Source of the DNA: a virus | Taxonomy: Duplodnaviria; Caudoviricetes | Virus record (IMG/VR): IMGVR_UViG_3300047561_001935 | Span: 1 to 44,158 of that record | Length of the DNA stretch: 44,158 bases | Direction: 5' to 3' (one strand) | In this document: piece after piece, positions 7,947-42,545 of the stretch | Numbering within the stretch: position 1 is the first letter of the stretch | Layout: each line of letters starts with the position of its first letter | Notes under the pieces: model-generated | What the model was told of the DNA's origin: nothing | The model's database searches: none | Seen by the model: only the letters and a program-made list of their open reading frames with translations | Translations under genes and position numbers: made by a program

Positions 7947-10900
7947 TTAAAAAATAATGGTGTTAAATACTGGTGTCTTTACAAACACCAGAGGATCACC
8001 TATGGCCAAGGCTGGTAACTTGTTGGCAAAATTATTTGTCACACAATCATAGGCAATGCCTCCACTCAACCATGCTGTAATATGTTTATCATTAAGAGCG
8101 CCAGGGTAATAAGGCTCATAAAGATGTCCTACCCAATTGACAGCTGTGTTCTCATAATTTGATCCACCAAATGCACTTTTGGAAAAATATTGTGTAAAAT
8201 GTGAATGTCTGATGGGTCTCATGCCAGCTGCATACTGCCATGATGTTTTGAATGCAGCAAATGTTTTCACACCAGTGTATGATGTGGGGAAATACCCCCA
8301 GCTGGGTACCAGTGCTGTGTATGGGCCATAAGAGCCACCACCTGGTGATGCATTGAAGGATTCTATTGTGTACACAAAAGACCAATTGTCTGTTTTTTGT
8401 GGATTGTTGAGGGTAAGTTTGCCACTGCTTGCTGGGTCTGTATAATAGGACATGGCTGATAGACCAGCTACCTCACCTTCACCACTGATGTTGTAAATAT
8501 AGGGGCCATTGGGATTGATGAACCGTCTGCCGTTGAAGCCCCATCCACCAAAATAACACATGCTACTGGCTGATAGATTTCCTGTATTGTGAGGCCATGC
8601 ATTGCTATAATTGCAAAACATGCCTGTAGTTTGTCTGACTGACGTTGTCCCGGCTGAAAGTGCTGTTGTTCTGCCAGTTCTATAAAAATACACCCCACTT
8701 AGTGCACGGTAAATATTATCACCTGCACTGTATAGACTAAAATAATCAATACCATACAAATTTGAATCCTCTGCATATGCAGACAATCTGTTGGTGTACA
8801 ACTTTGTTCCATCAGCTGATGCACGAGACAGTTTGTCTATATAGGCTAACACATCTTCCCTGTATTCACCTGCCAGATAGAAAGGAAATATTCCAGTATT
8901 CTTGCTGATATGGTAAGGCACACCTGACACTGATGCTAGTGTTGTGAGGTAGGGCACTGCAGTAGATGTTTGATCAATGATGTGCAGGGGCATGTCAAGG
9001 GAACATACAATGTATTTGGTTTTGATGTTGGATGCAAGGTATGCTTGTATGGGTGCTATCACACTTGCATTGAAATTAATGTTGTGTATCAAGTCATATT
9101 TTCTGCAACCCTCATACGGTACTCCTATATCAGCACCTGCTTCACTGATGATAGTTGCGACAGCTGAGAGTGCGAATCCAACTATTACTGTGCTCAATGC
9201 CATGGTGTATGATTGACCACAAGCCATCTGACTCCAGTTGCCTGTGAGAGCTACAAATGCGTTGGTATTGGTTGTGTTGCCTATGCCCAATTGACCACTT
9301 GTGTTGAGCCCTGTGCCAAACCATTTGTTGGTACCAGCAGACAATACCATGGTAGAATTGCTTACACATACCACATCGCTCCAAACGCCTGTGCACGCTG
9401 CAAATGAAGTTTTGGATATATTATCACCTAATCCCAGCGCACCATTGGCATTTCTCCCAGTAGCATACAATGCATTGGTACCAGCAGACAATGCCATGGT
9501 GTGCGATTGACCTGCAGACACTTGACTCCAATAGCCAGTCAATGCTGTTTGAAAAGTGCCTGTGCTGGATGTGTTACCTATGCCCAATTGACCACTTGAG
9601 TTATCTCCTGCGCCAAACCATTTGTTGGTACCAGCAGACAATGCCATGGTGTGATTATGTCCACATATCACTTTGCTCCAATTGCCAGCTACTGCAGTAA
9701 AACTGTTTTTATAAGTACCAACACCACTGGTGCCCAATCCCAATTGACCATAAAAATTATTCCCTGTGGCAAACAATGCATTGGTACCAGCAGACAATGC
9801 CATGGTGTGACTTGTGCCACATGCCATGCTGCTCCAGTTGCCTGTGAGAGCCACAAATGAAGAGTAGGGATAGATATTATTACCTATGCCCAATTGACCA
9901 TCAAAATTATTCCCTGTGGCAAACAATGCATTGGTACCAGCAGACAATGCCATGGTGTGACCGCCTCCACATACTACGTTGCTCCAAACGCCTGTGAGAG
10001 CCACAAATGTGCTGCTGTCAGTGGTGGTACCTATGCCCAATTGACCACTTGTGTTGGCTCCTGTGCCAAACCATTTGTTGGTACCAGCAGACAATGCCAT
10101 GGTGTGACTCCCTCCTTTGGCGCATACCACGTTGCTCCAATTGCCAGTCACTGCAGTAAAAGTGCTTACAGACAAAGCAACACCACTGTCATCCAATCCC
10201 AATTGACCATTTGAGTTGACTCCTGTGCCAAACAACACAGATGCAGATAAAGCTATTTGAACTGATGTATCAGCTGTTCTTCGTTGTGGGTAGATTTGAT
10301 ATGGAATATTCAGGCCTACTAAGTTTACTTTGGAGAAATTAGGTCTTTTTGTTTTGTAGTAATTGGCAACATCTATACTGTCTGTGCTGTTTTGATTGTA
10401 GAACACTACAACTTCATCACGAGCTGTGTTCAAGATGTTTTGTTGTTGCACAGGTATGCCTTGATAGATATTTTTATAAATCATGCCAGTATTATTTGCA
10501 TATGGATTAAGTAGGTACCTGTTGTAACCTCCAAGCAGGGTGGTGGTGCCAGTATAATCCGTTGATGAACCAGCAGTATCATACAATGCACCACTTGTAG
10601 CTGTCTTGATGGTGAACATCTTGACTTGGTGGGGTAGAGCATCAGGATTCAACTGATAAAATAGTGCACACATGCCGGCAGTTTGTGGACTGGCCATACT
10701 TGTGCCAGATATATTAACTTGTTTGTAGCTTGAGTTTAAAAAGTATGTCATGCCTCCAAATGCATTTGTGTTGCTGGTGCTGCTCATGATATCAGTACCT
10801 GGTGCATACACATCAACACCAGGTCCACCATTGCTATACCCAGCTTTATATTCTGTGGGTGTTGCAGTTGAGTTTACACTTCCAACTATTACTGCACTCA

Positions 10901-11987
10901 AGCTGTATGGGCTTGAACCGCGGTGATAGAACACCTGTGTACCTCCACTGCGACTGAAGTAATTATTATAATCAGCACCACCAGGCACATCAATTTTGAA
11001 ATAATCATTGCCTGCGGCAACACACACCGTGACACCTGCTTGAATTAATTCCTCTAGATCTGTATCCACAGAAGCCACGCGTGCAGGTACACTGCCTGTG
11101 TAATTCACCATGCCATAGGAAGAATTGGGTGTTGAGCCTATCCAATCTACACCTCGGTAATTGCCGCCTGTTAGAGGAGCGAATGCATATGTTGTGCTGT
11201 ATCCCCAACTCATGTTGACAACTGTGGGTCGTTTTTTACCAGTTACTGGGTCAATGGGCTTGTTTAAATGCCACCCCTTCACCACATCAAAACAATATGT
11301 GATGGGTATGCCTGTGCCAGCATCACCAGCACCTTCCAATCCATTTACCTTGAGAGCATATATTGTGGCATTCTTAGCCCATCCATATGTTTTGCCACAC
11401 ATTATGCCACCCACATGTGTACCATGACCGTCAAAATCTCTATAAAAATTTACACTTTGTGTGCCTGCAATGCCTGAAGCTGTATACCAGTCAATTTGCT
11501 GCACCCTAGATGCATTGGTGTTATCAGTGAATTCAGGATGATCTATCTGTAGCCCGCAATCATGTATTACAACATCCACACCTGTGCCATCCAGATGATA
11601 TGGGTATGCACATACTGTGGGAAAACCTGTGCTACCAAAGATTGTATTGTTAACAAACCCACATCTCAGCAATCCCCAGTTCACAAACGGTCCACTGTCA
11701 CTTGTGGTTTTATTAAAATTTGATGATTGTATGTTGAAAGGAGTTATTTTTATGTCATCACGTTGATCAGGTGGAAGCTCCACTGCCAGGACTCTTGGAT
11801 CTTCTTGTAGCACAGAAGCTTCATGATCAGTTAAAAAATAATGTGTGTTTCTCTGTGACAACGGCCTCTCATTGGCAATCTCTACTTGTCTGTTGGGTAC
11901 AAGTGTCTCAGTTGAAGATTGTACCATGGCATCATAAAAAGCATCGTAATCAACACCTGCTTTGAGTGTTACAATGTACTCTTTCAT
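7947..11987 (-). CDS. Subtilase (peptidase S8) fused to a TIGR03790-like domain interrupted by an RCC1-like beta-propeller
   Basis: S8 triad motifs VDVVIHDCG, DGHGTHVGG, ISGTSMASP; about 7 RCC1-like repeats (HTMALSAGTN..FxTGxNxxGQLGxG); flanking VVVFYNQNSTDSIDVANYYK and GHLYEPY...AIGDPL resemble the N- and C-terminal motifs of TIGR03790. Confidence 0.8.
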   Translation of the reverse strand: MKEYIVTLKAGVDYDAFYDAMVQSSTETLVPNRQVEIANERPLSQRNTHYFLTDHEASVLQEDPRVLAVELPPDQRDDIKITPFNIQSSNFNKTTSDSGPFVNWGLLRCGFVNNTIFGSTGFPTVCAYPYHLDGTGVDVVIHDCGLQIDHPEFTDNTNASRVQQIDWYTASGIAGTQSVNFYRDFDGHGTHVGGIMCGKTYGWAKNATIYALKVNGLEGAGDAGTGIPITYCFDVVKGWHLNKPIDPVTGKKRPTVVNMSWGYSTTYAFAPLTGGNYRGVDWIGSTPNSSYGMVNYTGSVPARVASVDTDLEELIQAGVTVCVAAGNDYFKIDVPGGADYNNYFSRSGGTQVFYHRGSSPYSLSAVIVGSVNSTATPTEYKAGYSNGGPGVDVYAPGTDIMSSTSNTNAFGGMTYFLNSSYKQVNISGTSMASPQTAGMCALFYQLNPDALPHQVKMFTIKTATSGALYDTAGSSTDYTGTTTLLGGYNRYLLNPYANNTGMIYKNIYQGIPVQQQNILNTARDEVVVFYNQNSTDSIDVANYYKTKRPNFSKVNLVGLNIPYQIYPQRRTADTSVQIALSASVLFGTGVNSNGQLGLDDSGVALSVSTFTAVTGNWSNVVCAKGGSHTMALSAGTNKWFGTGANTSGQLGIGTTTDSSTFVALTGVWSNVVCGGGHTMALSAGTNALFATGNNFDGQLGIGNNIYPYSSFVALTGNWSSMACGTSHTMALSAGTNALFATGNNFYGQLGLGTSGVGTYKNSFTAVAGNWSKVICGHNHTMALSAGTNKWFGAGDNSSGQLGIGNTSSTGTFQTALTGYWSQVSAGQSHTMALSAGTNALYATGRNANGALGLGDNISKTSFAACTGVWSDVVCVSNSTMVLSAGTNKWFGTGLNTSGQLGIGNTTNTNAFVALTGNWSQMACGQSYTMALSTVIVGFALSAVATIISEAGADIGVPYEGCRKYDLIHNINFNASVIAPIQAYLASNIKTKYIVCSLDMPLHIIDQTSTAVPYLTTLASVSGVPYHISKNTGIFPFYLAGEYREDVLAYIDKLSRASADGTKLYTNRLSAYAEDSNLYGIDYFSLYSAGDNIYRALSGVYFYRTGRTTALSAGTTSVRQTTGMFCNYSNAWPHNTGNLSASSMCYFGGWGFNGRRFINPNGPYIYNISGEGEVAGLSAMSYYTDPASSGKLTLNNPQKTDNWSFVYTIESFNASPGGGSYGPYTALVPSWGYFPTSYTGVKTFAAFKTSWQYAAGMRPIRHSHFTQYFSKSAFGGSNYENTAVNWVGHLYEPYYPGALNDKHITAWLSGGIAYDCVTNNFANKLPALAIGDPLVFVKTPVFNTIIF
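9190..10240 (-). repeat. Intragenic ~150-bp tandem repeats encoding RCC1-like blades
   Basis: Core ttggtaccagcagacaat(g/a)ccatggt at 9328, 9475, 9625, 9781, 9931 and 10078 (periods 147, 150, 156, 150, 147). Confidence 0.9.
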
Positions 11988-11992
11988 TAGAG

Positions 11993-12682
11993 TTAGTTGA
12001 GATCAACCCATCCTACAGAAGCATAACCTTGAAATTTATTTGTGGTGGTGTTGTATATCATGTCACCGTATAGAGGGGTAATTGCGTCTCTTAAAGCTGT
12101 GGTAAAATTTGCTATGCGAAAAGGTGTATTTGTAACTGTGACACGAGTCACAGCATCCAGTCGAATATCACTGCCAGACGATAGTGTGGGAGCGCCTGTA
12201 CCCACAGTGTTTATTTGAGATGAATATATTATGCCTCCAACAGATAGATATGTGGTGACTGTGCATGCACTCAAAATGACATTGCTGGAAGATATGGTTA
12301 CTGTCTGGCTAGCAGGATTGCTCCAACTGGCACTATTGGCATACACTGTGGACTCCACACTTTCCCAACCAGCACTATTATTGCGGGTGGTAGTATACAC
12401 GCTGTTCCATGCGCCGGAAGCAGCTGCTAATGAACTGAGATCTACACTTGTACCGCCTGTGCCCCAACTGGCACTGTTGGTTGCAACAGTAGTAGTTACA
12501 GTTGTAGCACGAAAGAAAGCTTCTGCAGCCACATTCACTGCAATATTCCATCCAGCACTATTTGCATTGGTGGTAGTATATGCACTATCCCATCCCCCTG
12601 CACCACTCAAGCTTGCTGCACTCAATGCATTTCTTATGCCGGTTAGTACGGTGCTGTCGGCTGTTGTGATCTCTATGGACAT
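11993..12682 (-). CDS. ANSAxW-repeat virion protein with a fibre-like C-terminal domain
   Basis: Repeats of WxSxYTTTxxNSAxW; C-terminal TTALRDAI...GDMIYNTTTNKFQGY...W motif common in phage fibres; N-terminus paralogous to 15630..16541. Confidence 0.7.
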   Translation of the reverse strand: MSIEITTADSTVLTGIRNALSAASLSGAGGWDSAYTTTNANSAGWNIAVNVAAEAFFRATTVTTTVATNSASWGTGGTSVDLSSLAAASGAWNSVYTTTRNNSAGWESVESTVYANSASWSNPASQTVTISSSNVILSACTVTTYLSVGGIIYSSQINTVGTGAPTLSSGSDIRLDAVTRVTVTNTPFRIANFTTALRDAITPLYGDMIYNTTTNKFQGYASVGWVDLN

Positions 12683-15629: not shown

Positions 15630-16541
15630 TTAGCTATATATCACCGCTGCAATAAAACCATATAGAGCACTATTGGCATTCACATTGGTATACACACTGC
15701 TCCAAGCAGCACTATTGGCATTCACATTGGTATACACACTGCTACCTGTTCCCCATGTAGAACTATTTGCATTGGTAGTTGTATATGCACTGATCCATGC
15801 GCCAGAATTTGCACCCATTAGTGTTGCAACAGCTGCAGTCGGAGCACTACTTGCATTCACAAATGTGTACGCACTACCCCATGCAGCACTATTGGCATAT
15901 ACTGTGGACTCTACACTTTCCCAACCAGCACTATTGGCATTCACATTGGTATACACACTGCCCCATGCAGCACTGTTTGCATTGGTGGTTGCATATACAC
16001 TGTTCCATGAAGCAGAAGTGGTGGTTAGCAAGCTAGTGTTTACACCGCCTGTTCCCCACACAGCACTGTTTGCATTGGTGGTGGTGTACACACTGTTTAA
16101 AGTGGCACTGTTTGCTTTGGTGGTGGTATACGCGCTGCCCCATGCAGCACTATTTGCTCTGGTGGTTGCATATACACTGTTCCATGAAGCAGAAGTGGTG
16201 GTTAGCAAGCTGAGATCTACACTTACACCGCCTGTGCCCCAAATGGCACTGTTTGCATTGGTGGTGGTGTATGTACTATCCCAATTGGCACTGTTGGCAT
16301 ACACAGTTGCTGTTGTGTTGTCCCAATTGGCGCTGTTGGCATACACAGTTGCTGTTGTGCCATTCCAATTGGCACTGTTGGCATACACAGTTGCTGTTGT
16401 GTTGTCCCACCCAGCACTATTATTGCGTGTGGTTGTATATACGCTATCCCATGTAAATGAACCACTTAAATTTGCAGCTTTTAATGCATTTCTTATGCCA
16501 GTTATTGTGGTGCTGTCTGCTGTTGTGAGCTCTATGGCCAT
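15630..16541 (-). CDS. ANSAxW 14-residue-repeat protein (putative trimeric coiled-coil fibre)
   Basis: 303 aa made almost entirely of WxSVYTTTNANSAx 14-mers and ending in a hydrophobic tail (LYGFIAAVIYS). Confidence 0.75.
   Translation of the reverse strand: MAIELTTADSTTITGIRNALKAANLSGSFTWDSVYTTTRNNSAGWDNTTATVYANSANWNGTTATVYANSANWDNTTATVYANSANWDSTYTTTNANSAIWGTGGVSVDLSLLTTTSASWNSVYATTRANSAAWGSAYTTTKANSATLNSVYTTTNANSAVWGTGGVNTSLLTTTSASWNSVYATTNANSAAWGSVYTNVNANSAGWESVESTVYANSAAWGSAYTFVNASSAPTAAVATLMGANSGAWISAYTTTNANSSTWGTGSSVYTNVNANSAAWSSVYTNVNANSALYGFIAAVIYS
16279..16409 (-). repeat. Three near-perfect 42-bp tandem repeats (in-frame)
   Basis: Unit tcccaattggcactgttggcatacacagttgctgttgtgttg starts at 16279, 16321 and 16363 with few mismatches. 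Confidence 0.9.
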
Positions 16542-16567: not shown

Positions 16568-16921
16568 CTAGATTACTTGAATATAGGAGAACCGTTTGCT
16601 AGAGGATGCAAGTGCATAGCCTGCTTCATTTGCAAATATTATATCCAGTTTTTGTGGGGTGTAGAAGACCGGAAGAGTGAAGGTGAGTGTGTTGTTGGTG
16701 AAGGTTGTGTACATGGGCATGGGATATGCTGAAAATGGTGGATTACCAGCACTGACACTTTTCACAGAACTATACAAATTGTAATATTTTTGTGTGCCAT
16801 CAAATGCATTGGAGCTCAGGTACAATCCCACATCAGTCTTGTAATTGAACATATTGCCATTCACAGTTATTTGTTTCCCAGAAGTACCCACAGTTACTGT
16901 ATAAGAGGGGTAACTTTTCAT
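16568..16921 (-). CDS. Small Ig-like virion protein (putative)
   Basis: 117 aa, beta-rich (ITVNG...LTFTLP...LDIIFANEAGY); overlaps the upstream stop by ATGA. Confidence 0.55.
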   Translation of the reverse strand: MKSYPSYTVTVGTSGKQITVNGNMFNYKTDVGLYLSSNAFDGTQKYYNLYSSVKSVSAGNPPFSAYPMPMYTTFTNNTLTFTLPVFYTPQKLDIIFANEAGYALASSSKRFSYIQVI

Positions 16922-17745
16922 GGCAGAGGTCCCAAGGGAGTGTATAATCTGATATCAGAAATAACAGGGCGACCAGAAACTGTCACAGTTTCAGAATTAG
17001 CAAAAGCAGACAAAGGCGACTCTGCAGTAATTTCTTGTGACTTGAGAAACGCATATGCTCCATAGTCAAGAGACATTCCAGTACTCACTGCAGTGAATTG
17101 TGTATCAATTTTATAAATGTTTTTAACAGGATCTTGAGGGTCTGGAAATAAAAATCCTTTGATTGTGAATCCTGTGTCAGCAATGATTTGTGCTTTTTGA
17201 TTTCCATTGATATCTGTGGGGTAAGACATGTTGATGTTGCCATTCCATAGAACTTCAGATCTTATTTCTTGAGTATAAGGTAAATTGAATTCTTTGGGCA
17301 CAGTCCAGCTGAGAATAATATAAGGATTGTTGAAAGGTACAAAATTGGTGAGAATTTGATCCATGTCAGACTGATAGCGAGCCAAGATGCTCATCTTCAA
17401 CTCAATGTTCACTGGCACTGGTGCTTTGTAATAAAACGTTGCAGGTCCAGGATTATCTTCAAAAGGTGTGCCAGCAGCATAGAATCCTGCATTTTTATTG
17501 AATACTCGATTGTTGTCTCTTGATATGCTGCTTATTGTTATGCTCACAACAGGCAATGTTATGTTTTGTGCCGGGTTAACTAAATCAAATAATACACGCT
17601 CTTTTGGTGCATAAATATATCTTACTTGTTGTATAGCACCAGGTACCCTGTTCTTATCGTACCGCTTGATTACAACATCATCAAATGCAGCTAGAAATTG
17701 GATTAATAAATCCTTGATTTCAAAATAATGACTCTGCATCTTCAT
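16918..17745 (-). CDS. T4 gp15-like tail sheath stabiliser/completion protein
   Basis: FLAAFDDVVIKR, VRYIYAPKER, LPVVS..ISSISRD, PVPVNI..KMSILARYQSDMDQILTNFVPFNNP and FTIKGFLF match the gp15 pattern. Confidence 0.85.
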   Translation of the reverse strand: MKMQSHYFEIKDLLIQFLAAFDDVVIKRYDKNRVPGAIQQVRYIYAPKERVLFDLVNPAQNITLPVVSITISSISRDNNRVFNKNAGFYAAGTPFEDNPGPATFYYKAPVPVNIELKMSILARYQSDMDQILTNFVPFNNPYIILSWTVPKEFNLPYTQEIRSEVLWNGNINMSYPTDINGNQKAQIIADTGFTIKGFLFPDPQDPVKNIYKIDTQFTAVSTGMSLDYGAYAFLKSQEITAESPLSAFANSETVTVSGRPVISDIRLYTPLGPLP

Positions 17746-17779
17746 ATTCTATATTTAGTAGAATACTAGGTGCTATATG

Positions 17780-17983
17780 TTATTTATAGAATTTCCACTT
17801 CAAGGCAGATATCTTGGGGGCTAGCTTGCGTCTCATGGAAGGCTTCATGAAGGTTTTGCGGAGCTTCAGATCTTCCAGCACACCACAACGTTTCACAGCA
17901 TTGGTGAATTGACGAAGTTTTTTATCAAAATAAAGCTTGTTGGAACTCTTACCCTTTTCAAACTTTACCTCACAATTGATCAT
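17780..17983 (-). CDS. rpsU: Phage-encoded 30S ribosomal protein bS21
   Basis: 67 aa, basic; FDKKLRQFTNAVKRCGVLEDLKLRKTFMKPSMRRK fits the bS21 pattern (LRRF...G...E.R.R..Y.KPS..RK). Confidence 0.8.
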   Translation of the reverse strand: MINCEVKFEKGKSSNKLYFDKKLRQFTNAVKRCGVLEDLKLRKTFMKPSMRRKLAPKISALKWKFYK

Positions 17984-18003
17984 AATGTCGCTTATTTATG
18001 CGT

Positions 18004-18357
18004 TCAAATGGCATCTTCAATGACATTTATTTCAAGTTGTGTGTTAAAGAATTTACCAGGTTTTTTGGGCATGAGTTGTCTGGCATGGTGCATAATTTTT
18101 TCTGATCCATGATGAAAAATGGAAGTGTCATAGTTAAGAATAATTTTATTTGCATATTGATCAAACAAATATGGGTAAGGTATTTCAAACATTTTCTTGC
18201 TATGGTTTACACTGATGGTGAATACCAAGTAAAAATCTTTGATACAAAACAGAATCAATTTGCCACTCTTGATGATCTTGTTGTTGATGGTGAAGTTGAC
18301 TCGTTGTTGCAACAAGCTGTTGATGGCCTTTTCCAGTTGTTCTGCTTTCATCATCAT
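18004..18357 (-). CDS. Hypothetical protein
   Basis: 117-aa ORF coupled to the upstream gene by an ATGA overlap. Confidence 0.6.
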   Translation of the reverse strand: MMMKAEQLEKAINSLLQQRVNFTINNKIIKSGKLILFCIKDFYLVFTISVNHSKKMFEIPYPYLFDQYANKIILNYDTSIFHHGSEKIMHHARQLMPKKPGKFFNTQLEINVIEDAI

Positions 18358-18731
18358 GAGTCCATGTAATCTATTTTTTGCGCCACAGAAAGACGGGCCA
18401 AATTATCCCTGAAATACTTCCAGAAAGCGTCACCTGCAGGTATGGATGTGATCAAGTCACAATTGTCACAATTCACAGCACGGTAATCCTGCATGAACAC
18501 ATCCCACACAATGACTAAATTCTTTTGATCTGGATTATACCGGGTGGATTTCATGGTGGGTTTGTAATTCAATGCCACTCTACCATCAGCACTGTTCAAC
18601 AGTGCTTGAGCATTTGTGCACAACATTCTGCGTGTGTTGGGTTTGCCTGGGCGCGGTCGTCGCCGTGCAAATTTAATCTCACACACGTTGTTTTGCAGTA
18701 CGCTTTTTAGACTCATTAATGATACTAGCAT
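18354..18731 (-). CDS. SH3-fold DUF2693/WYL_2-like phage protein
   Basis: LKSVLQNNVCEIKFxR...RRMLCT...LVIVWDVFMQDYRAV pattern; start moved to ATG 18731. Confidence 0.6.
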   Translation of the reverse strand: MLVSLMSLKSVLQNNVCEIKFARRRPRPGKPNTRRMLCTNAQALLNSADGRVALNYKPTMKSTRYNPDQKNLVIVWDVFMQDYRAVNCDNCDLITSIPAGDAFWKYFRDNLARLSVAQKIDYMDS

Positions 18732-19140
18732 CTTGCTTTCTGGGTTGCACAACGCCGAAGATGCGCTGTTCGTTTAAGAAAATGCCATGCTTGACAGCAC
18801 CATGGCTAACAACCTCAATGTTTGCAATGGGCACTCCCATGTTGTTGGGAAAACATACAAAATCACCTTGCTTGACCAACCGGCAACTATTGCCACACAG
18901 TATAACTTTGCCAATGCGCCAGGCATTTGTTTCTGCATTCACTGGCACCAAAATGCCATTGCGTATGATGGTGTTGCCCCCAGACTCACCTTCATCCACA
19001 AACTCCACAAGCAAAATATCATCCAACAAAGCCGACATGTCATATCCAGTGAACAGGCTGTTGAAATTATTTTTGGAATGTGCACTTAAATCAATTAAAC
19101 TTTTCTTTACTGCTAGTTGGTCAATGCATTGTTTGCTCAT
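18679..19140 (-). CDS. groES: GroES-like co-chaperonin (gp31 analogue)
   Basis: DDILLVE...NGILVP...RIGKVILCG...VKQGDFVCFP...FLNEQRIFGVV follows the Cpn10 pattern. Confidence 0.7.
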   Translation of the reverse strand: MSKQCIDQLAVKKSLIDLSAHSKNNFNSLFTGYDMSALLDDILLVEFVDEGESGGNTIIRNGILVPVNAETNAWRIGKVILCGNSCRLVKQGDFVCFPNNMGVPIANIEVVSHGAVKHGIFLNEQRIFGVVQPRKQDASIINESKKRTAKQRV

Positions 19141-19170
19141 ATGGTCACTTATGTGTGAACTGTGTGAAAA

Positions 19171-19443
19171 TCAAGGGATCTTGGGTTTCTTGATATAATT
19201 GATGCGTTGCTTTGGATATGTGGGCAACAGGTTCACCAACAGATTGTATTGATCTTGTGGTGTAGGGAACACGTGACTCATGCGATTGACTGTGTCATTG
19301 ACAATTCTAGCTGCTGCAGGGTCCAACATGGACAACCATCTGTTCACCAAGAAGGGTTGGTATTCCTTCTCTGCTTCTGGTGTATTGAAGATATCTTTTT
19401 TCTTAGAAAAGGCTACACTGTCAATGATATCAAATATGTTCAA
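19171..19443 (-). CDS. T4 gp62-like clamp loader small subunit
   Basis: MNIFDIIDSV..KK...YQPFLVNRWLS...N...QYNLL...LP.....YIKK is the short gp62 family pattern. Confidence 0.75.
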   Translation of the reverse strand: MNIFDIIDSVAFSKKKDIFNTPEAEKEYQPFLVNRWLSMLDPAAARIVNDTVNRMSHVFPTPQDQYNLLVNLLPTYPKQRINYIKKPKIP

Positions 19444-20030
19444 TGCGATATGATTTTGGTGGATGCAATGAAGATGTCATCATTTATCTGATAAAAGGAA
19501 TTGATCACATCTTGCATGAAGCTAGTTGCATCTGTATCACCTAGTTCTGTGCTGAAAGCAAATGCAGGTGCGTGTTTGCCTGCTTGAATGTTGATGCCTG
19601 TGTGACCCAGGGCAGCTGCATCTTTCACATGCACAATGCTCACTGAACATTTGCCAGACTGTTGTGTCACACCACCTTGTGTAAACTCACGCGTCACCAT
19701 CAAATCATCACCATCCACGGTGATGGGTGCCTTGAGGTATTTGAACAAAATATTTGCAACATTTGTATTGAATAATCTTTGATACGCAATGGCGCCAAAG
19801 CTTTCTGTGATCAAAGGAATTTCATACAGAAAGTGCACCATGTCTTCACTGTAAATAAAATCCTTGCTCAAAGCATCTTCTTGATCAATCAATCCTTCAG
19901 TTTCCACTTTTGCAGGAGCACGGAAGGCAATGATGTTGCCAATGGGCAAGCATTGTTTGCGAAAGTACTTGTATGCAAATCTGTGGTGCAATAAAACACC
20001 ATCATAACACTTGATGTCAGTTAAAATCAT
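19440..20030 (-). CDS. DUF366 family protein (lipoate/biotin ligase-like fold)
   Basis: YDGVLLHHRFAY...IIAFRAP...LIDQED...IYSEDMVHF, VDGDDL, GKCSVSI and HTGINI motifs. Confidence 0.75.
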   Translation of the reverse strand: MILTDIKCYDGVLLHHRFAYKYFRKQCLPIGNIIAFRAPAKVETEGLIDQEDALSKDFIYSEDMVHFLYEIPLITESFGAIAYQRLFNTNVANILFKYLKAPITVDGDDLMVTREFTQGGVTQQSGKCSVSIVHVKDAAALGHTGINIQAGKHAPAFAFSTELGDTDATSFMQDVINSFYQINDDIFIASTKIISH

Positions 20031-20036
20031 GCGTGT

Positions 20037-20064
20037 ATTATAAGTTAGCCCACCAAAACTTCAA
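20037..20064 (-). promoter_or_regulatory. sigma70-type early promoter, leaderless
   Basis: TTGAAG-N16-TATAAT-N6-ATG(20030). Confidence 0.75.
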
Positions 20065-20492: not shown

Positions 20493-20498
20493 TAAATA
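20493..20498 (+). promoter_or_regulatory. T4-like late promoter core (TAAATA) of the portal gene
   Basis: caTAAATA 4 nt before ATG 20503; the same motif precedes most structural genes. Confidence 0.7.
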
Positions 20499-20502
20499 AC
20501 GT

Positions 20503-22320
20503 ATGCCTGACTCAGGAAATGCAGAAAGTGGCCGTGAATCAACATTTGGCCGGTCGCTAATGAATTATGTTAATTCACGTCTGCCATACCAGAGCTACAC
20601 AGCCATTGATACAATCAGTAAGCTCAACCCGAAATACAAGGTCTTCCAGGACACAGGGAGCAAGAGAACAGAGGCTCTTGCAAGACAGAGCATCAGCAGC
20701 AACACAGATTACAACAGTCTTGATCCGTCTGGTATAATTGGACTGGACAACAACTTCACACAATACATGTATGCAAACATACAGCACGACAAAATCTCTC
20801 GGTTACGCGACTATCGCACCATGGCATCATTCTCTGAGATAGCAGATGCATTGGATGAAATATGTGATGAATCCATCAACAGGGATGTACAGGGCAAGGT
20901 TGTCAAGCTCGAGTTCCCAGAGCTTGATATTGACGACAAAGACAAAGATACCCTACAGAAGGAATTTCAGAAATATGTAAACTACTTTGATCTCGCCCAC
21001 AAAGGTTGGGAATATTTTCGTACTCTGCTTGTGGATGGTGAAATTTATTTTGAACATATTATTCATAAAAGTTATGAAGAAGAGGGCATCCTCGGCATTG
21101 TAACCATACCCAATGAATTTGTTGACCCTATTTTCGGCAATGTACAAAACATGATGATTAAAGGCTTCCTTTTACGCAAGCCTGTGTTTGACAAAACCAA
21201 TCCAACTAAAATTCTGGATTACAAGCTGGTACCACTTGACAAGAATCAAGTAACCTACATCAATTCTGGCATATGGAATGAGAACAAGACCATCAGATTA
21301 CCTTTCCTAGAGAATGCCCGTAGAGCATACCGTCAGATCAGTTTATTAGAAGATGCAGTAGTCATATATAGACTTGCAAGAGCACCACAACGCCTGGTAT
21401 TCAATGTGGATGTGGGCAACATGCCGGCACCCAAAGCAGAAGCTTATTTGAAGAAGTTAATGAATCAGTATTGGTCCTCAAAAACCTTTGATTCACAACA
21501 AGGTGGTACTGCTGTAAAGAAATACAACCCACAGAGTATTCTTGATAATTTCTGGTTTGCAAAGAGACAAGGATCTGAGGGCACAGATGTGAAGCAACTG
21601 GAAGGTGCAAATTCTGCTTGGGGCCTGGAAGAGATGCTATATTTCTTAAAGAAACTCTATAAGAGTCTCAAAGTACCTGTTTCTCGGTTGAACGCAGACA
21701 CCGGATACAAGGATGACATGAATATCTTGCGAGAGGAGTTAAAATTTGCAAAATTCATCATTCGTATGCAGCAACAATTCTCTGAAGGACTTAAAAATGG
21801 ATTCATTACCCACCTCAAATTGAAGAACCTTTGGGACAAATATGATCTTAAAGAAAATCATATCAACATAGAGTTTAACGTGCCTGTGAACTTCTTTGAA
21901 ATGAGAGAAGCGCAAAAACAAGAGATCAAGACCAAAACGTTTTCTGACATTGTGCAGTCTTCTGATACCATTAGCAAAACATATGCTCTTAAGAAATACA
22001 TGGATTGGAATGATATTGAGGTGTTGGCAAATAGAGAGTTCATGCGCAAGGACATGGCGTTCGGTTGGGAATTGGAGCAAATTAAATCTGGCGGGCCCAA
22101 TTGGAAAGAAAATGCATTGGCTTCTGCAGCCCCCATGGGCAATGAAGCAGGAGCAGAAATTGGTGGTGCAGGTGTGACAGGCTCCACTCCACCTGCTTTT
22201 GGACCAGCACCTAGTGCTGCAGAACCTGCACCTGAGAGTGGTGCACCTGTGACAGGTGCTGGAGCTGTGCCACCAGAAGCCGCTGCAGCTGAAGCACCTG
22301 GTGTTACGCCAGCGGCTTAA
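20503..22320 (+). CDS. T4 gp20-like portal protein
   Basis: YRTMA...EIADALDEICDE, FRTLLVDGEIYF, LLEDAVVIYRLARAPQRLVFNVDVGNMPAPKAEAYL, YFLKKLYKSLKVPVSRL and REELKFAKFI; Pro/Ala/Glu-rich C-tail. Confidence 0.95.
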   Translation: MPDSGNAESGRESTFGRSLMNYVNSRLPYQSYTAIDTISKLNPKYKVFQDTGSKRTEALARQSISSNTDYNSLDPSGIIGLDNNFTQYMYANIQHDKISRLRDYRTMASFSEIADALDEICDESINRDVQGKVVKLEFPELDIDDKDKDTLQKEFQKYVNYFDLAHKGWEYFRTLLVDGEIYFEHIIHKSYEEEGILGIVTIPNEFVDPIFGNVQNMMIKGFLLRKPVFDKTNPTKILDYKLVPLDKNQVTYINSGIWNENKTIRLPFLENARRAYRQISLLEDAVVIYRLARAPQRLVFNVDVGNMPAPKAEAYLKKLMNQYWSSKTFDSQQGGTAVKKYNPQSILDNFWFAKRQGSEGTDVKQLEGANSAWGLEEMLYFLKKLYKSLKVPVSRLNADTGYKDDMNILREELKFAKFIIRMQQQFSEGLKNGFITHLKLKNLWDKYDLKENHINIEFNVPVNFFEMREAQKQEIKTKTFSDIVQSSDTISKTYALKKYMDWNDIEVLANREFMRKDMAFGWELEQIKSGGPNWKENALASAAPMGNEAGAEIGGAGVTGSTPPAFGPAPSAAEPAPESGAPVTGAGAVPPEAAAAEAPGVTPAA

Positions 22321-23423: not shown

Positions 23424-24416
23424 CTAGATTATGTTGTTTGTCCGAATTATTGCCTGCTTTATTGCCATCCACATATCCAAATACTTGTAAGTGGCCAGTC
23501 TTCCGAGAAACAACACATTACTTTCATTTTCAGCCATTTGCTTGTATACATTATTGTAGAGAGACATGCCTTCACCAAAAGGTATGGGGTAGAAAGGTAA
23601 ATTAGTTTCATCATGTTGTAGGGGAAATTCTTTTGTTATAACTGTCAACCCTTTGTGATTATATGTAAAAAAGCCATGATCATAAATTCGGGTAAACTTA
23701 TTAAATGAGTTTGTTTGATTGATAACAACATTAAATTGCCGATCACCTGTTACCGTGTGTTCAAAGCGCAATGATCTGTAGGGCAGCCGACCTGCACAAT
23801 AATCAAAGTATTCATCAACTTTGCCTGTGTAAATCGTAAGATCTGCATCATATCTTCTCCATTCATTTGTCTCAATACTGGTGTGCACAGTTATACCATC
23901 CAGCATATTTTTCATCATCTCTGTATAACCATATTTTGGTATACATTGATACTTCTGATTGCCATACCAAGTGGGGTCTTCATGTTGAGGAAGCCGCGGC
24001 ACTCTGTTGATAATTGAAGTGGGAATGTCCTTAAATGGTACTCCCCATTGCTTCTCTGAATACTCTCTAAAAAAATATTCAATGATTTCTTCTTGAGAGA
24101 GTTCTCGACCAAGTTGTAAGATTGTCTTCTGGCTGTATGGCAGTGACACCATGCCTAAGCGAGAATCTGCATATGGCTTATACTCAAATGGCAGAAATTC
24201 CGTATACTCAGATACAAATCTATATACCTCTTCATCATTAGTGTGAAAGATATGTGGACCATAATTATGTACCATGGTGCCACATACATTACTATCATAA
24301 CAATTGCCACCAATATGATTCTTGCTCTCAAATATCTCTACATGGTGGCCACGTTTTTTTAGCAAAACAGCGGCAGTTATTCCTGAGAGTCCACAACCTA
24401 TAATATTAATTCTCAT
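23424..24416 (-). CDS. glf: UDP-galactopyranose mutase
   Basis: IIGCGLSG FAD motif, HIGGNCYD, HNYGPHIFHT, YSEKQWG, LPYRSLRF, GRLATYKYLDM. Confidence 0.92.
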   Translation of the reverse strand: MRINIIGCGLSGITAAVLLKKRGHHVEIFESKNHIGGNCYDSNVCGTMVHNYGPHIFHTNDEEVYRFVSEYTEFLPFEYKPYADSRLGMVSLPYSQKTILQLGRELSQEEIIEYFFREYSEKQWGVPFKDIPTSIINRVPRLPQHEDPTWYGNQKYQCIPKYGYTEMMKNMLDGITVHTSIETNEWRRYDADLTIYTGKVDEYFDYCAGRLPYRSLRFEHTVTGDRQFNVVINQTNSFNKFTRIYDHGFFTYNHKGLTVITKEFPLQHDETNLPFYPIPFGEGMSLYNNVYKQMAENESNVLFLGRLATYKYLDMWMAIKQAIIRTNNII

Positions 24417-24446
24417 AGATACATTTAACTATATTTACCTTTTATG

Positions 24447-24475
24447 TTGATTTTATCTATAGCATATGCTATTAT
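24447..24475 (+). promoter_or_regulatory. sigma70-type early promoter, leaderless
   Basis: TTGATT-N17-TATTAT-N6-ATG(24482). Confidence 0.7.
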
Positions 24476-24481
24476 ATACAA

Positions 24482-24685
24482 ATGGAAAAGTTTACCGCCG
24501 TTATAAAGAGCATACATGCTACTGATAAAAGTAGAAACATTAAAATCACAGCATGGGACCAATGGGAAGCACACAAGTTGGCTACTAATAAATATCATCA
24601 ATATAGAGAAGATATTATTAGCATCAAGGACAGCCGCAATAATGAAGTGTACAATTTGGAAAAAGGCTTTATTTTTGAATCTTAA
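24482..24685 (+). CDS. Hypothetical small protein
   Basis: 67 aa, directly downstream of a promoter. Confidence 0.65.
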   Translation: MEKFTAVIKSIHATDKSRNIKITAWDQWEAHKLATNKYHQYREDIISIKDSRNNEVYNLEKGFIFES

Positions 24686-24748
24686 TTAAAAAATTAATTA
24701 CAAAGAATAAATAAAGTAGATACAATTGAATAGTAATGAAGCGAATTA

Positions 24749-24970
24749 ATGAATAACGTTCACCTGCTTGTTGTAGATCAGAGCAATAATGGGTCGTATC
24801 ACGTGAAGGTAATTGTTGATTCAAAGGAATCTGGTATTTTGTATTTATCTTCTGAACAGTTCCATATATTTTGCACTGGAATAAAGAATGCTTGTTATGA
24901 AAATAATGTTTTCTTTTTAGTTGAAAACCCTTTTGATGTTGAATCAGAAGATGATGAAGATCTAGAATAA
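24749..24970 (+). CDS. Hypothetical small protein with acidic C-terminus
   Basis: 73 aa ending ESEDDEDLE; fills the gap between neighbours. Confidence 0.6.
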   Translation: MNNVHLLVVDQSNNGSYHVKVIVDSKESGILYLSSEQFHIFCTGIKNACYENNVFFLVENPFDVESEDDEDLE

Positions 24971-24978
24971 ATATATGC

Positions 24979-25185
24979 ATGAAGAACATGCAGACATCCG
25001 CAAGAGGATTCTGTGAAGAATTCTCTACACACATCTACGAGGACAAAATTCGTAATAGTATTCTGGTGAATGTGGACCAAGAATGGTTTCCAACGCTAGA
25101 TATAGGCATGTGTAAACGTGGATACAAGCTCGTGCATGCTACAGTGATGCCAAAAACAAATACTTGTGTATATCAAAAAACTTGA
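24979..25185 (+). CDS. Hypothetical small protein
   Basis: 68 aa; TAAATA 5 nt upstream. Confidence 0.6.
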   Translation: MKNMQTSARGFCEEFSTHIYEDKIRNSILVNVDQEWFPTLDIGMCKRGYKLVHATVMPKTNTCVYQKT

Positions 25186-25209
25186 AGTACAGCTAGCTGA
25201 AGCTATACT
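25182..25209 (+). promoter_or_regulatory. sigma70-type early promoter, leaderless
   Basis: TTGAAG-N16-TATACT-N6-GTG(25216). Confidence 0.75.
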
Positions 25210-25215
25210 CAATTT

Positions 25216-25950
25216 GTGGTAAAAAGTAAATCTAAAAAATCACCCGTATTCAATGCAGAGGCACATACCTATACAGACCCAGACGACAAGTTCAAGTATT
25301 GTAGCGTGACACGATGGATTGAACAATTCAAAAAACCTTTTGACCAACAGGTAATGGCAGAAAAAATAGCCAGGCGCGAAGGTGTGTCTGTGGAGTTCAT
25401 ATTGGAGGAATGGCATGAAAAGAGGGAAAGTAGTAAAATTTTTGGAACCAAGGTGCACAAAGCCCTAGAAATATTTCACAAGACAGGTGAAGAATCAGAT
25501 AAAGACTGTAGTGTCATCTTAAGCAGCTTCAAGGCTCTTAATATTAATTTTAGTAAAAAAGATTCTTTTTTTGAGAAATTAGTATACAACCGCGATCTTG
25601 GTGTTGCAGGCACTTCAGATATTATTGTACATAATGCAGATAAAAAAACGTTTAATGTTTATGATTTTAAAACTAATAAAAAGGTAAGATATGCTTCACC
25701 GTTTGGTGATTCTCTTCTTGGCCCACTTAAAAAATATCCTTGTTCGGAATACTTTACATATTCTTTGCAATTGAGCATGTACGCTTATTTGTATAAACTT
25801 ATGACCGGGTTGGAGCCGATGAGATTAAAGATTTTTTGGTATGAAAGAGAGAAGCCTGAAGATTATACAAGCTTTAGCGGTAAATGGCAGATCATAAATG
25901 TACCATATCTCGAGGAAGATCTTATCAATTGTTTGAGTAATGAACACTAG
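25216..25950 (+). CDS. PD-(D/E)XK exonuclease family protein
   Basis: HTYT...SVT, GTKVH, EKLVY...VAGTSD, VYDFKTNK and YSLQLSMYA motifs. Confidence 0.85.
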   Translation: MVKSKSKKSPVFNAEAHTYTDPDDKFKYCSVTRWIEQFKKPFDQQVMAEKIARREGVSVEFILEEWHEKRESSKIFGTKVHKALEIFHKTGEESDKDCSVILSSFKALNINFSKKDSFFEKLVYNRDLGVAGTSDIIVHNADKKTFNVYDFKTNKKVRYASPFGDSLLGPLKKYPCSEYFTYSLQLSMYAYLYKLMTGLEPMRLKIFWYEREKPEDYTSFSGKWQIINVPYLEEDLINCLSNEH

Positions 25951-26356
25951 GAAAACATGGGAAGAATACGCGCTCCTTCTCGCACAGTCTGCATCCAGTA
26001 GAAGTGAAGACCCTTATAATAGGGTAGGTGCTTGTGCGTTAGGATATAATAACAGAGTCCTTGGTGTTGCTTATAATGGGTTAGTATCTGGAAAGAAAAT
26101 ATCAGATTCCTTCTGGCAAAATAGGGATGGTAGACGTCCATATATTATTCATGCAGAACAAAATATATTAAGCTTATTCAAAAGAGGTGAAGCACGTCTT
26201 TTAGCATGTACTTTGTTGCCCTGTTCTGACTGTGCTCGACTAATTTGTAGTTGGGAGATTCCCCTGGTTTGCTATATGGATGATTACCAAAGAGATGCAG
26301 GCGCTATAGATATCTTTAAATTTTACAATGTAAAGCTAAAAAGGATAAAGCTATAG
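25940..26356 (+). CDS. dCMP deaminase
   Basis: SRSEDP...VGAC, AYNG, IHAEQN and PCSDC zinc motifs. Confidence 0.9.
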   Translation: MNTRKTWEEYALLLAQSASSRSEDPYNRVGACALGYNNRVLGVAYNGLVSGKKISDSFWQNRDGRRPYIIHAEQNILSLFKRGEARLLACTLLPCSDCARLICSWEIPLVCYMDDYQRDAGAIDIFKFYNVKLKRIKL

Positions 26357-26389
26357 TAGAAAATAGCTCTCGCAACATAAATAAGCTAT

Positions 26390-26938
26390 ATGGCCGTAGC
26401 TACAATTTCTGTTAATTTTGCAAATTCATCTGATATCACAACGGGTGCCAGTACTATAACTAGTATTAATCCCGCACAATTGAAGAGCGCTCTAACTAGT
26501 GGTGCAGCCATGTATGCATTATCTATTGCCGCACTAACAACCAATGGCAATCTAGCTGTGGTTGGTGCAACGACTGCTACTGGTGATATCACAGCCTATT
26601 CTTCTGATAAACGACTCAAAGATGTGGTGAGTATCATACCCAATGCTCTTGAGAAGGTCAATGCAATTTCTGGTGTACTATACAAACATAATGATGTAGC
26701 AAAAAAATATGGTTTTACAGAAAATGATCAAAAAGTTGGTGTGCTTGCCCAGGAAGTGCAAGCTGTATTACCTGAGGTAATTAAACCTGCACCGTTTGAT
26801 ACAGATGAAAATGGTGCAAGTAAGTCTGGTGAGAACTACCTGACTGTTCAATACGAAAAAATTGTCCCACTGCTGATTGAAGCAATCAAGGAACTTAGCA
26901 AAAAGGTTGAATTACTAGAACAAGCACGGGGTGAGTAA
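26390..26938 (+). CDS. Miniature fibre protein with a C-terminal peptidase S74 intramolecular chaperone
   Basis: GDITAY-SSDKRLK autocleavage motif, ALEKV..ISG, VGVLAQEVQAVLPEV and YEKIVPLLIEAIKEL; only about 71 aa precede the chaperone; TAAATA 6 nt upstream. Confidence 0.85.
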   Translation: MAVATISVNFANSSDITTGASTITSINPAQLKSALTSGAAMYALSIAALTTNGNLAVVGATTATGDITAYSSDKRLKDVVSIIPNALEKVNAISGVLYKHNDVAKKYGFTENDQKVGVLAQEVQAVLPEVIKPAPFDTDENGASKSGENYLTVQYEKIVPLLIEAIKELSKKVELLEQARGE

Positions 26939-26940
26939 TC

Positions 26941-27714
26941 ATGCCTAGCCCTGGCGATAACCTTTCAATAAACGCATTGGCGGCTGCAACAGGTGCTACA
27001 CCAAAGAGCTTAGGAACTATAGCTGGGAGCACAGCAACGCCAATTGCGGTAAGTGAATTCACTGTCACAGGGATTACTACCCCCACAGCAAGCGTGGCAA
27101 CTGTTGCGTATGGCTCAACTATAACTGTAACGTCTAATTTTACTGGAACCGGTGCACGATTTTTGTCCCGTATTGGGAGCCGAGCTGCTAACTTCACTTG
27201 GTCAACACCTGCCAATCTGACACTCACAACTAACAATGGGTACAACAGGATCTACACAAACGCATATAACCCTGGCTCAACTAGCTGCAGTTCTTCCACA
27301 ACAAGAACAGTAGCAGTAACTTTTGCAGACGGGTTTAATCTCACTGCGTCAAATTATAATGTTGCGTTAACAACAACAGCATTTACGACTTATTCACCAC
27401 CCAAGCCGTCCTTGACAGGTATCGGGTTAGTACGCCCACCACAACCTTGTGATACTGTCACTGGTGGTTGCGGTGCAGCATGCTATGGAGCTTCAATAAG
27501 ACTCAATGGCAATGCAGGCAGTTACAATGGTGTGCTGGGTTCTTCTAATTCTTATTATATTGCAGGCGTTCTTCGATCCACTGTTGCAGGCAACACTTCA
27601 ACATACGATTCTGCCGCAATATTTTGCGGCAATACTGCTTATAGCTGCTATGTTATAAATAATTATTCTTGCCAGGGTGATGCAGTTAACGTCACTACAT
27701 TAGCATATCTCTAA
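26941..27714 (+). CDS. Putative fibre-tip adhesin, Thr/Ser-rich with Cys-containing C-terminal half
   Basis: Directly follows the S74 fibre; MPSPGDNLSINAL N-terminus resembles adhesin attachment segments; 7 Cys. Confidence 0.55.
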   Translation: MPSPGDNLSINALAAATGATPKSLGTIAGSTATPIAVSEFTVTGITTPTASVATVAYGSTITVTSNFTGTGARFLSRIGSRAANFTWSTPANLTLTTNNGYNRIYTNAYNPGSTSCSSSTTRTVAVTFADGFNLTASNYNVALTTTAFTTYSPPKPSLTGIGLVRPPQPCDTVTGGCGAACYGASIRLNGNAGSYNGVLGSSNSYYIAGVLRSTVAGNTSTYDSAAIFCGNTAYSCYVINNYSCQGDAVNVTTLAYL

Positions 27715-27747
27715 TAGAATAATCTCTTCTTTTAAATAAATTACTGT

Positions 27748-28371
27748 GTGAACTACAGTACACTGGACATACACCTGGTTGTAGCAAAATACAAAGAAAA
27801 TATAGATTGGGCCGTAAATGCAGGTGTGCCTCACACAATCTATAACAAAGACCAGGAGTGTAAAGATTCACGCTTCATTAATTTACCCAACATAGGAAGA
27901 GAAGCGCATACATACTTGCACTACATCGTGACTAATTACCACAATTTGCCTGATTACGTATTTTTCTCTGAAGGCAACTGTCTGTCCAACAGACCTCTGG
28001 AAACCATGGAACCGATTGAAAATCTTTATAGTGAAATAAAGAATTTTAGAGGCATGCCACGGGTCAAGCCGATGGGTACCCGTGTTGTGGAGCGAATAGA
28101 AGGTGATCAAACATGCTATGAATTAAATTTAAATGTAGTAAGAGTGTATGAAAAGCTATTTAAAATTGAACAAACAGAATTTGTCTATTATATTGGTGGT
28201 CAATTAATTGTACCAAGATCCAGAATAACATTTCATTCACATAATTTCTATAAACACCTATATGAAAATATTTCTGATGTAAGAGGGGTTGGGTATTGTG
28301 CATGGACTCTGGAACGACTTTGGCCTTACATTTACAATGGAAAAACTAAGAGTGTTATAGATGATTGTTAA
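27748..28371 (+). CDS. DUF3431 family protein
   Basis: LVVAKYKENIDW, IYNK, LPNIGREAHTYLHYIVTNY..LPDYVFF and LERLW motifs. Confidence 0.8.
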   Translation: MNYSTLDIHLVVAKYKENIDWAVNAGVPHTIYNKDQECKDSRFINLPNIGREAHTYLHYIVTNYHNLPDYVFFSEGNCLSNRPLETMEPIENLYSEIKNFRGMPRVKPMGTRVVERIEGDQTCYELNLNVVRVYEKLFKIEQTEFVYYIGGQLIVPRSRITFHSHNFYKHLYENISDVRGVGYCAWTLERLWPYIYNGKTKSVIDDC

Positions 28372-33232: not shown

Positions 33233-33264
33233 ATTTTTCAGTTAAATACTATAGAATAATATAT

Positions 33265-33513
33265 ATGGTGTCAACGAAAGATCACTTAATTGAGAGTAAT
33301 ATGAGTTATATATACCACTGCAAACATGGTATTATAAATGGTACTAGACTACTGCTTGGAGCTCTTGCAAGCTACGTACATAGCTTCTTTCCATCGCTTT
33401 TTCCTAGATATAGTATAATGACAGTGTTATCACTATACCATGAAATTAAGCGCTACTGCCATATTCAGAAGATTGAGCGTAGATATCTAGATGAACACAA
33501 AGAAAAAGACTAA
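33265..33513 (+). CDS. DUF6356-like small membrane-associated protein
   Basis: HL.E.NMSY..H...VHSFFP.LF pattern. Confidence 0.55.
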   Translation: MVSTKDHLIESNMSYIYHCKHGIINGTRLLLGALASYVHSFFPSLFPRYSIMTVLSLYHEIKRYCHIQKIERRYLDEHKEKD

Positions 33514-37270: not shown

Positions 37271-37271
37271 T

Positions 37272-39752: not shown

Positions 39753-39753
39753 T
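39726..39753 (+). promoter_or_regulatory. sigma70-type early promoter, leaderless
   Basis: TTGAGT-N16-TATAAT-N6-ATG(39760). Confidence 0.75.
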
Positions 39754-39759
39754 AAATCA

Positions 39760-41206: not shown

Positions 41207-41235
41207 AAGCTTAACTGTTAATTTAGCTTAATTTC

Positions 41236-41263: not shown

Positions 41264-41269
41264 TGCAGT

Positions 41270-42542: not shown

Positions 42543-42545
42543 TGT

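Follow-up and report, generated by a model that had tools for sequence, protein, structure and literature searches.

Among the ribosomal proteins that phages encode, bS21 is the most common, and the copy described here raises the question of whether such a protein turns the ribosomes of the host towards the mRNAs of the phage. The gene belongs to an uncultured, T4-like myophage and was analyzed in a stretch of 44,158 nucleotides, hereafter the window (IMG/VR record IMGVR_UViG_3300047561_001935). No cultured relative was found, the best matches of the portal and gp15 proteins being about 30% identical. A preliminary description of the window had proposed that its promoter layout and bS21 form one takeover system, in a genome that appears to avoid Shine-Dalgarno (SD) initiation and to produce leaderless or short-leader mRNAs.

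Identity of the phage bS21

The ORF at positions 17780-17983 (minus strand, ATG start) encodes 67 amino acids. Its assignment to bS21 passed the proposed search against Pfam PF01165, with 29.4 bits for a curated family cut-off of 27; the proteins of four relatives scored 29.1 to 39.2 bits, and the window protein also matched PHROG 21469 (S21) with an E value of 4e-6. With the NCBIfam equivalog TIGR00030, which describes cellular bS21, it reached 23.9 bits, under the cut-off of 28.95, and its best sequence match in the PDB had an E value of 4e-4. A structure model derived from 40 sequences (pLDDT 84) has helices at residues 16-33, 35-43, and 48-64 and a K-P-S hinge, a helical fold as expected of bS21. 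The sole Foldseek match of this model was the B. subtilis bS21 chain 7qv1_b (E 3.4, rmsd 2.6 Å, 49 columns), while the top three VIA matches were chain u of chloroplast ribosomes, which we take to be bS21c (best Z 6.1, rmsd 2.8 Å, 62 aligned residues). An earlier model from 11 sequences (pLDDT 73) gave no bS21 match in Foldseek. Modest fold-match scores are expected because the protein has only 67 residues.

The gene displayed dN/dS values of 0.01-0.06 in five pairs and of 0 in a sixth, three more pairs being saturated; these values indicate that it is under purifying selection. The divergence noticed earlier was also recovered. The window protein carries FMKPS and a WKFYK tail, the alignment with host proteins reveals an insertion of five residues before helix 1 in the phage subfamily, and most members end in K-W-K-F/Y-Y. 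The tail is basic (net +7), and its residues W63 and Y66 are invariant in 11/11 sequences. The register of Tyr54 in the Flavobacterium protein, counted from the hinge proline and not from a structure, corresponds to Leu61 in the window; this position is variable, and the aromatic residues stand at 63, 65, and 66. In a phylogenetic tree the 21 phage sequences formed one clade (support 0.942), which nests in neither the 47 Verrucomicrobiota nor the 37 other bS21 sequences included. This monophyletic family spans two genomic sites, one at gp15 and the other at a helicase gene. At the level of sequence, these data confirm that the ORF is a genuine, conserved, and divergent phage bS21.

Verrucomicrobiales-type bS21 ends in K-W-R-F/Y, a similar tail placed four residues later. 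An origin of the phage protein from this order is unproven: a Trp at the same register was also found in four unrelated representatives, and the tree joins no such pair. In one related locus (L129:4964-5191) bS21 is split over two frames, by a frameshift or an assembly error.

Organization of the locus

As first described, bS21 lies next to gp15 and near the portal gene. Its downstream neighbor gp15 (16918-17745, minus strand; Pfam PF16724, E 1e-19), the tail sheath stabilizer, followed bS21 in 32/32 related loci checked. The portal gene gp20 (20503-22320, plus strand; Pfam PF07230, E 7e-98) starts 2.5 kb away on the opposite strand, and bS21 thus lies within ten genes of core structural genes. 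Upstream on the minus strand are two unknown ORFs (18004-18357 and 18354-18752), a GroES-like gene (18679-19140), the gene of the clamp-loader small subunit (19171-19443), and a DUF366 gene (19440-20030). This co-directional run from DUF366 to bS21 is conserved wherever related contigs reach. No defence-related neighbor of bS21 was found in the window annotation. The DUF366 gene is 77-97% conserved in the clade and had one match among 50,697 phage records, in Microcystis phage MaAM05 (33%).

The TAAATA motif reported upstream of bS21 is present at 17993-17998 (minus strand), 9 nt before the ATG, and is the predicted core of a T4-type late promoter. A second TAAATA overlaps the bS21 stop codon (17781-17786, minus strand), and a third stands 6 nt before the gp15 ATG (17752-17757, minus strand), where it predicts a leaderless late start; the same spacing to gp15 occurs in many sister phages without bS21 at the gp15 site. 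The portal gene has TAAATA 4 nt before its ATG (element from 20493). A sigma70-type promoter (TTGAAG, 16 nt, TATAAT; 20037-20064, minus strand) is located 6 nt before the DUF366 ATG and predicts a leaderless early or middle start. Since it heads the run 18004-20030, read-through into bS21 is possible. Among 20 distinct loci, the bS21 start is preceded by an exact TAAATA at 4-9 nt in 14 and by a sigma70-type TATAAT at 6 nt in two. The claim that bS21 has its own late-type promoter therefore holds for the motif, from which late expression would follow.

Members of the subfamily also occur between the helicase and gp32 genes of four sister genomes (G004, G141-G143), where they abut or overlap their neighbors. 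This position in a replication operon implies that late timing is not fixed for the family, though it is likely for the window, where the TAAATA promoter of bS21 itself probably drives late synthesis. The copies at the helicase-gp32 site are L168:1435-1644, L536, L537, and L538, of which L537 apparently has no ATG start. Sequestering of the bS21 start in a read-through RNA, as for T4 gene e, was considered and rejected (z -1.6, 13/200 shuffles as good, mixed across relatives).

Other features of these genomes deserve mention. Positions 15630-16541 of the window encode a 303-amino-acid low-complexity repeat protein behind TAAATA; in N-terminal codons and 8-nt spacer this gene is very similar to the ORF at 11993-12682, which suggests a duplication. 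A cluster at 23424-42216 comprises glycosyltransferases, UDP-galactopyranose mutase, tryptophan halogenase, PhyH dioxygenase, radical SAM, and UDP-glucose dehydrogenase. The close relative G001 has 8 tRNA genes, together with QueF, QueC, GTP cyclohydrolase I, and PTPS genes (L174:2040-2957, L177:14928-15671, L178:13992-16994), a set which suggests that it makes 7-deazaguanine.

Promoters on start codons and scarce SD sequences

TAAATA was found 4-9 nt before the start of 11/48 window genes, whereas 2000 shuffles gave 0.63 such genes on average and 4 at most. Leaderless or short-leader mRNAs, as proposed earlier, are thus predicted. The proposed avoidance of SD initiation stands for the window, where 1/48 genes has a site of SD strength, and fails for the capsid and sheath genes of close relatives, located outside the window, which keep their SDs. 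No SD precedes bS21, whose predicted leader measures about 3-5 nt.

The same core precedes structural genes in the T4 gp55 late promoter (TATAAATA; NATAAATA in cyanophage S-PM2), as given in PMC7892883 and PMC2984593, and the late motif is also given in PMC3014915. The adenines of the T4 promoter are placed at -12, -9, and -8 (PMC7892883). With this numbering the last A of the motif falls at -6, so that a spacing of 5 nt would put the ATG at +1 and the spacing of 9 nt would give bS21 a leader of about 4 nt. T4 promoter geometry hence predicts leaderless starts in the lineage. The spacing differs from that of known phages: the late motif lies 9-46 nt from the start in T4 and Syn9, whereas it peaks at 4-7 nt in this lineage. 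The hexamers of sigma70-type promoters likewise peak 6 nt before the ATG (e.g. 23 cases in G001 and 21 in G003). A gp55 gene was identified in G001 (PHROG 234, E 2e-24), gp55 being outside the window fragment; together with the enrichment of the core, it marks TAAATA as a predicted late promoter of the T4 gp55 type.

Control phages, treated with the same gene caller, behaved differently. TAAATA at 4-7 nt preceded 0/50 genes in T4, 0/42 in Syn9, and 2/57 in the bS21-carrying phage HTVC008M, while SD words preceded 26/50, 12/42, and 27/57 genes, respectively. Gene calls were made with a rough in-house caller that covered 75-89% of nine genomes. Judged from these comparisons, the short promoter-to-start spacing and the scarcity of SD in the lineage are real.

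The gp15 starts vary among the loci. They are often GTG or TTG (L006, L031, L048, L065, L142, L146, L151, L163, and others), some loci of this set have no standard start near the aligned N-terminus, and L006 has an SD-like word before ATT. In two sister subclades (L049-L062, L066, L075, L081) gp15 has a leader of 15-22 nt, in several cases with AGG or AGGAG, and this leader was thus gained more than once.

No association of the predicted leaderless layout with bS21

The preliminary description had suggested correlating the presence of bS21 with the leaderless fraction across related phages. Leaderless-type starts were found in 247/782 genes (31.6%) of five bS21-carrying genomes and in 166/533 genes (31.1%) of four relatives without bS21 at either known site (p 0.90, treating genes as independent, which they are not). 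These four genomes (G002, G003, G005, G006) are 44-70% complete, so that a bS21 gene at a third site is possible. G007 (41% leaderless-type) and G010 (30%) were excluded from the comparison because their helicase site is unseen. In a gp15 tree, phages with bS21 at gp15 formed one clade (support 0.955), and the nearest lineages outside it, G006, G010, and G002, have no bS21 gene there. HTVC008M represents the converse case, with bS21 present in a leadered and SD-rich genome. Furthermore, early sigma70-type promoters also lie on start codons, which implies that host ribosomes would have to read such messages before late bS21 exists; this timing argument is void if bS21 is packaged or made by read-through.

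These comparisons show, within the predicted starts of the lineage, that bS21 is dispensable for the leaderless-type layout, and the idea that promoter layout and bS21 work as one coupled takeover system is not supported. Phage bS21 may still tune initiation quantitatively. Since relatives without a detected bS21 share the layout, the protein is likely a spare part of the ribosome and not the cause of the layout.

SDs before the capsid and sheath genes, and the 4-nt spacing

The capsid gene is preceded by AAGGAG in 7/7 of the closest distinct genes and also in many sister phages; a search of five further clade contigs for a capsid gene gave one partial match. For the sheath gene, 13/19 distinct upstream regions of at least 71% identity to G001 contain an SD of -8.4 kcal/mol or stronger, for 0/23 among regions of at most 66% identity, 21 of which have TAAATA at 5-9 nt. 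Among the 29 closest gp18 sheath loci examined, 25 carry TAAATA 44-48 nt upstream. A script found in 18 of these 25 a mini-ORF of 10-11 codons that includes the SD position and ends 1-5 nt ahead of the sheath ATG; in the other seven it chose an earlier ATG, and six of them show the same mini-ORF by eye. The regions upstream of gp18 are those of L458-L503, with that of G001 at L176:17900-17950. The arrangement resembles a natural coupling of two cistrons. In more distant phages the sheath gene has a plain leaderless start, as it does in G004, which carries bS21 at the helicase site. The sheath SD and mini-ORF share a contig with bS21 in G001 only.

A spacing of exactly 4 nt between TAAATA and the start was found in 10/12 clade loci as compared to 0/14 sister loci, where spacings begin at 5 nt. 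It occurs 19 times in G001 and 0 times in each of nine sister genomes; examples in the window are 20493-20503 and 42536-42546. Its confinement to the clade indicates that something in initiation changed on this branch. The 4-nt spacing, the sheath mini-ORF, and bS21 at gp15 appear to have arisen on one branch as a single event. This event could reflect a change of gp55 or of the host, and bS21 could also have taken a specialized role.

A probable host in the Verrucomicrobiota

No host-diagnostic gene was found in the window itself, and the lead on its host comes from genes of the relatives. For an amylase-like gene of G001, the best 80 of 459 genome matches all bore names of Verrucomicrobiota in their record titles, and two of these were Kiritimatiellia. 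Both complete relatives have genes of PEP-CTERM proteins. Host-like genes of G001 (L180:3915-7073, 8295-9863, 11806-11994) and G141 (L539) encode a Verrucomicrobiota-type amylase family, PEP-CTERM, histone H1-like Hc1, and prepilin-type N-methylation proteins. No photosynthesis family was detected among 244 G001 proteins. The promoter consensus of Bacteroidota differs from the sigma70 type, and the canonical sigma70-type promoters therefore argue against a Bacteroidota host. Taken together, we infer a host in the Verrucomicrobiota, a phylum reported to be in part SD-scarce and to use leaderless mRNAs. In this phylum Akkermansia is described as SD-scarce (PMC10783764), and about 10% of its start sites as leaderless, versus 0.4% in E. 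coli (PMC4782308). When five Verrucomicrobiota genomes were sampled, SDs were not clearly more frequent than in control windows, while 400 kb of five genomes held too few TANNNT sites, with rough start calls, for a leaderless share of candidate hosts. Short DNA matches to 12/401 genomes of one Verrucomicrobiota class were rejected as CRISPR-type host evidence, since the 10 checked had no array-like repeats.

All 121 Verrucomicrobiota genomes searched (121/121) have their own bS21, which means that the phage protein would face competition from a resident host protein for its site. In a sample of 53 Verrucomicrobiota rpsU genes biased to high Pfam scorers (L302-L336, L357-L376), 31 are preceded by an SD of at least -10 kcal/mol in strength, the strongest reaching -18. 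These strong SDs recall the autoregulation of bS21 in Bacteroidota, and L305 has one despite little SD excess in its genome sample. Opitutales-type bS21 proteins (L304, L362, L366, L357-L361, L369) have Phe at the register of Flavobacterium Tyr54; an independent masking of the anti-SD in such hosts is possible.

Comparison with known systems

That phage bS21 lies near structural genes with late expression is already published: Chen et al. 2022 reported a core structural gene within ten genes of bS21 in 388/900 phages and proposed late expression (PMC9723584). Their freshwater myoviruses, predicted to infect Bacteroidota, resemble our phage as large myophages with bS21 near structural genes. 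By sequence, the present lineage differs from these cases in strand, neighbors, residue at the Tyr54 register, and likely host. Their bS21 is on the strand opposite to TerL, portal, and capsid genes, whereas that of the window is co-directional with gp15 and ends the DUF366-clamp loader-GroES run; their protein is Bacteroidota-like and keeps Tyr54, whereas ours lacks an aromatic residue there and comes with a host lead in the Verrucomicrobiota. Neither the strand arrangement nor the Bacteroidota-like sequence of their clades a-e was found in the window, and its promoters are canonical sigma70-type. The main text of that paper mentions neither leaderless mRNA nor promoters, and its supplementary tables of 900 phages could include the lineage of the window. 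Judged by title and the start of the abstract, no paper listed connected a phage-encoded bS21 with leaderless mRNA or with phages of Verrucomicrobiota, subscription papers being mostly outside this search.

The Pelagibacter phage HTVC008M is also T4-like with a bS21 gene, and its protein, the only phage bS21 found with a test in the literature, enters the E. coli 70S ribosome (Mizuno et al. 2019, PMC6375957). This protein shares 54% identity with that of its host, whereas the window protein has the insertion and the aromatic tail and groups with no candidate host protein. In Flavobacterium johnsoniae the anti-SD is sequestered by bS21, bS18, and bS6, and the C-terminus of bS21 sets the selectivity between SD and SD-less mRNAs (Jha et al. 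2021, PMC7797042; McNutt et al. 2023, PMC9976891). As described there, sequestration depends on Tyr54, on a tail of less basic character, and on residues of bS18 and bS6 specific to Bacteroidota, and it concerns SD-less leadered mRNA, not leaderless mRNA. The phage tail differs by its basic character and by aromatic residues 2-5 positions further on; by register, the aromatic residue at the Tyr54 position is missing from the window protein. According to PMC7550191, the tails of phage S21 proteins are not clearly related to ribosome-binding sites.

Possible roles of the phage bS21

The role put forward in the preliminary description was that phage bS21 may retune ribosomes to leaderless or short-leader mRNAs; it would do so in place of the host copy, for example by hiding the anti-SD or by favoring 70S initiation. 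Protein bS21 lies next to the anti-SD and is able to determine which mRNAs are selected (PMC7797042, PMC9976891), the aromatic tail of the phage protein is conserved, about one third of the genes have leaderless-type starts, and the 4-nt spacing is confined to the clade. Several observations nevertheless weigh against such retuning, which we regard as improbable: the leaderless share is equal without the gene, the SD-rich HTVC008M carries bS21, the early sigma70-type starts are leaderless-type too, and no aromatic residue occupies the Tyr54 register. Hiding the anti-SD would moreover hurt the capsid and sheath genes, which keep their SDs, and E. coli ribosomes are reported to favor the leaderless lambda cI mRNA on loss of uS2 and bS21 (PMC10491246). 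In the reverse effect, the anti-SD would be masked by the host bS21 until the phage protein takes its place, which would free SD pairing for the few SD-led late mRNAs in highest demand, those of capsid and sheath. In its favor are the SDs of these genes (13/19 versus 0/23 for the sheath, 7/7 for the closest capsid genes), the Phe that Opitutales-type host bS21 has and the phage protein lacks, and two Chthoniobacterales-type rpsU genes with strong SDs (L305, L365). However, many sister phages likewise have capsid SDs, G004 combines bS21 with a plain leaderless sheath start, the coincidence of sheath SD and bS21, seen on one contig in G001 only, amounts to a single evolutionary event, and the precedent for masking comes from outside the Verrucomicrobiota; we find this effect quite improbable.

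An action mainly against the host, on or off the ribosome, is doubtful to the same degree. Phage bS21 would then poison initiation on host mRNAs or counter a translation-arrest defence, as its distance from host bS21, the counter-defence proposed in PMC9723584 and PMC7550191, and the activity of about 5% on a reporter in vitro of E. coli ribosomes with the HTVC008M protein (PMC6375957) could suggest. That activity was measured in a foreign host, a poison made late would also damage phage synthesis, and no defence-related neighbor was found. That the ORF arose by chance, or is a passenger that is neutral or in decay, is very improbable indeed and largely refuted by the selection acting on the sequence: the raw scores are weak (E 4e-4 in the PDB, under the TIGR00030 cut-off) and no copy was found in several relatives, but dN/dS is 0.01-0.06, the gene holds the same place in 32/32 loci, and it is monophyletic across two sites.

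On balance we lean towards phage bS21 being a spare or replacement subunit, made late, in a lineage whose scarce SDs match its host. The gene would be transcribed late from its own TAAATA promoter, with read-through from the sigma70-type promoter before DUF366, and its product would load onto the platform of the host 30S subunit. Protein bS21 is exchangeable (PMC6375957), and the benefit may be that an exchangeable protein is topped up after host synthesis stops. Flavobacterium ribosomes without bS21 are described as slower to initiate on SD-less mRNA (PMC9976891); a late supply of bS21 likely keeps ribosomes fit for SD-independent initiation, and the predicted leaderless, SD-poor layout likely mirrors the host. 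The insertion and tail, which are conserved, not host-like, and under strong selection, fit a specialized role better than a plain spare. We consider it rather unlikely that the subfamily is a true switch of initiation specificity in Verrucomicrobiota phages, which would express many of their genes from leaderless mRNAs; this switch would re-weigh leaderless against SD-led mRNAs late in infection and, on the branch that acquired its late promoter, would have co-evolved with the 4-nt spacing and the sheath mini-cistron.

The lineage offers a natural test set, with bS21 at two sites or apparently absent and predicted leaderless starts throughout, and the likely host phylum includes a culturable member, Akkermansia. 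If phage bS21 did switch the initiation preference, the outcome would be a specialized ribosome made by a virus.
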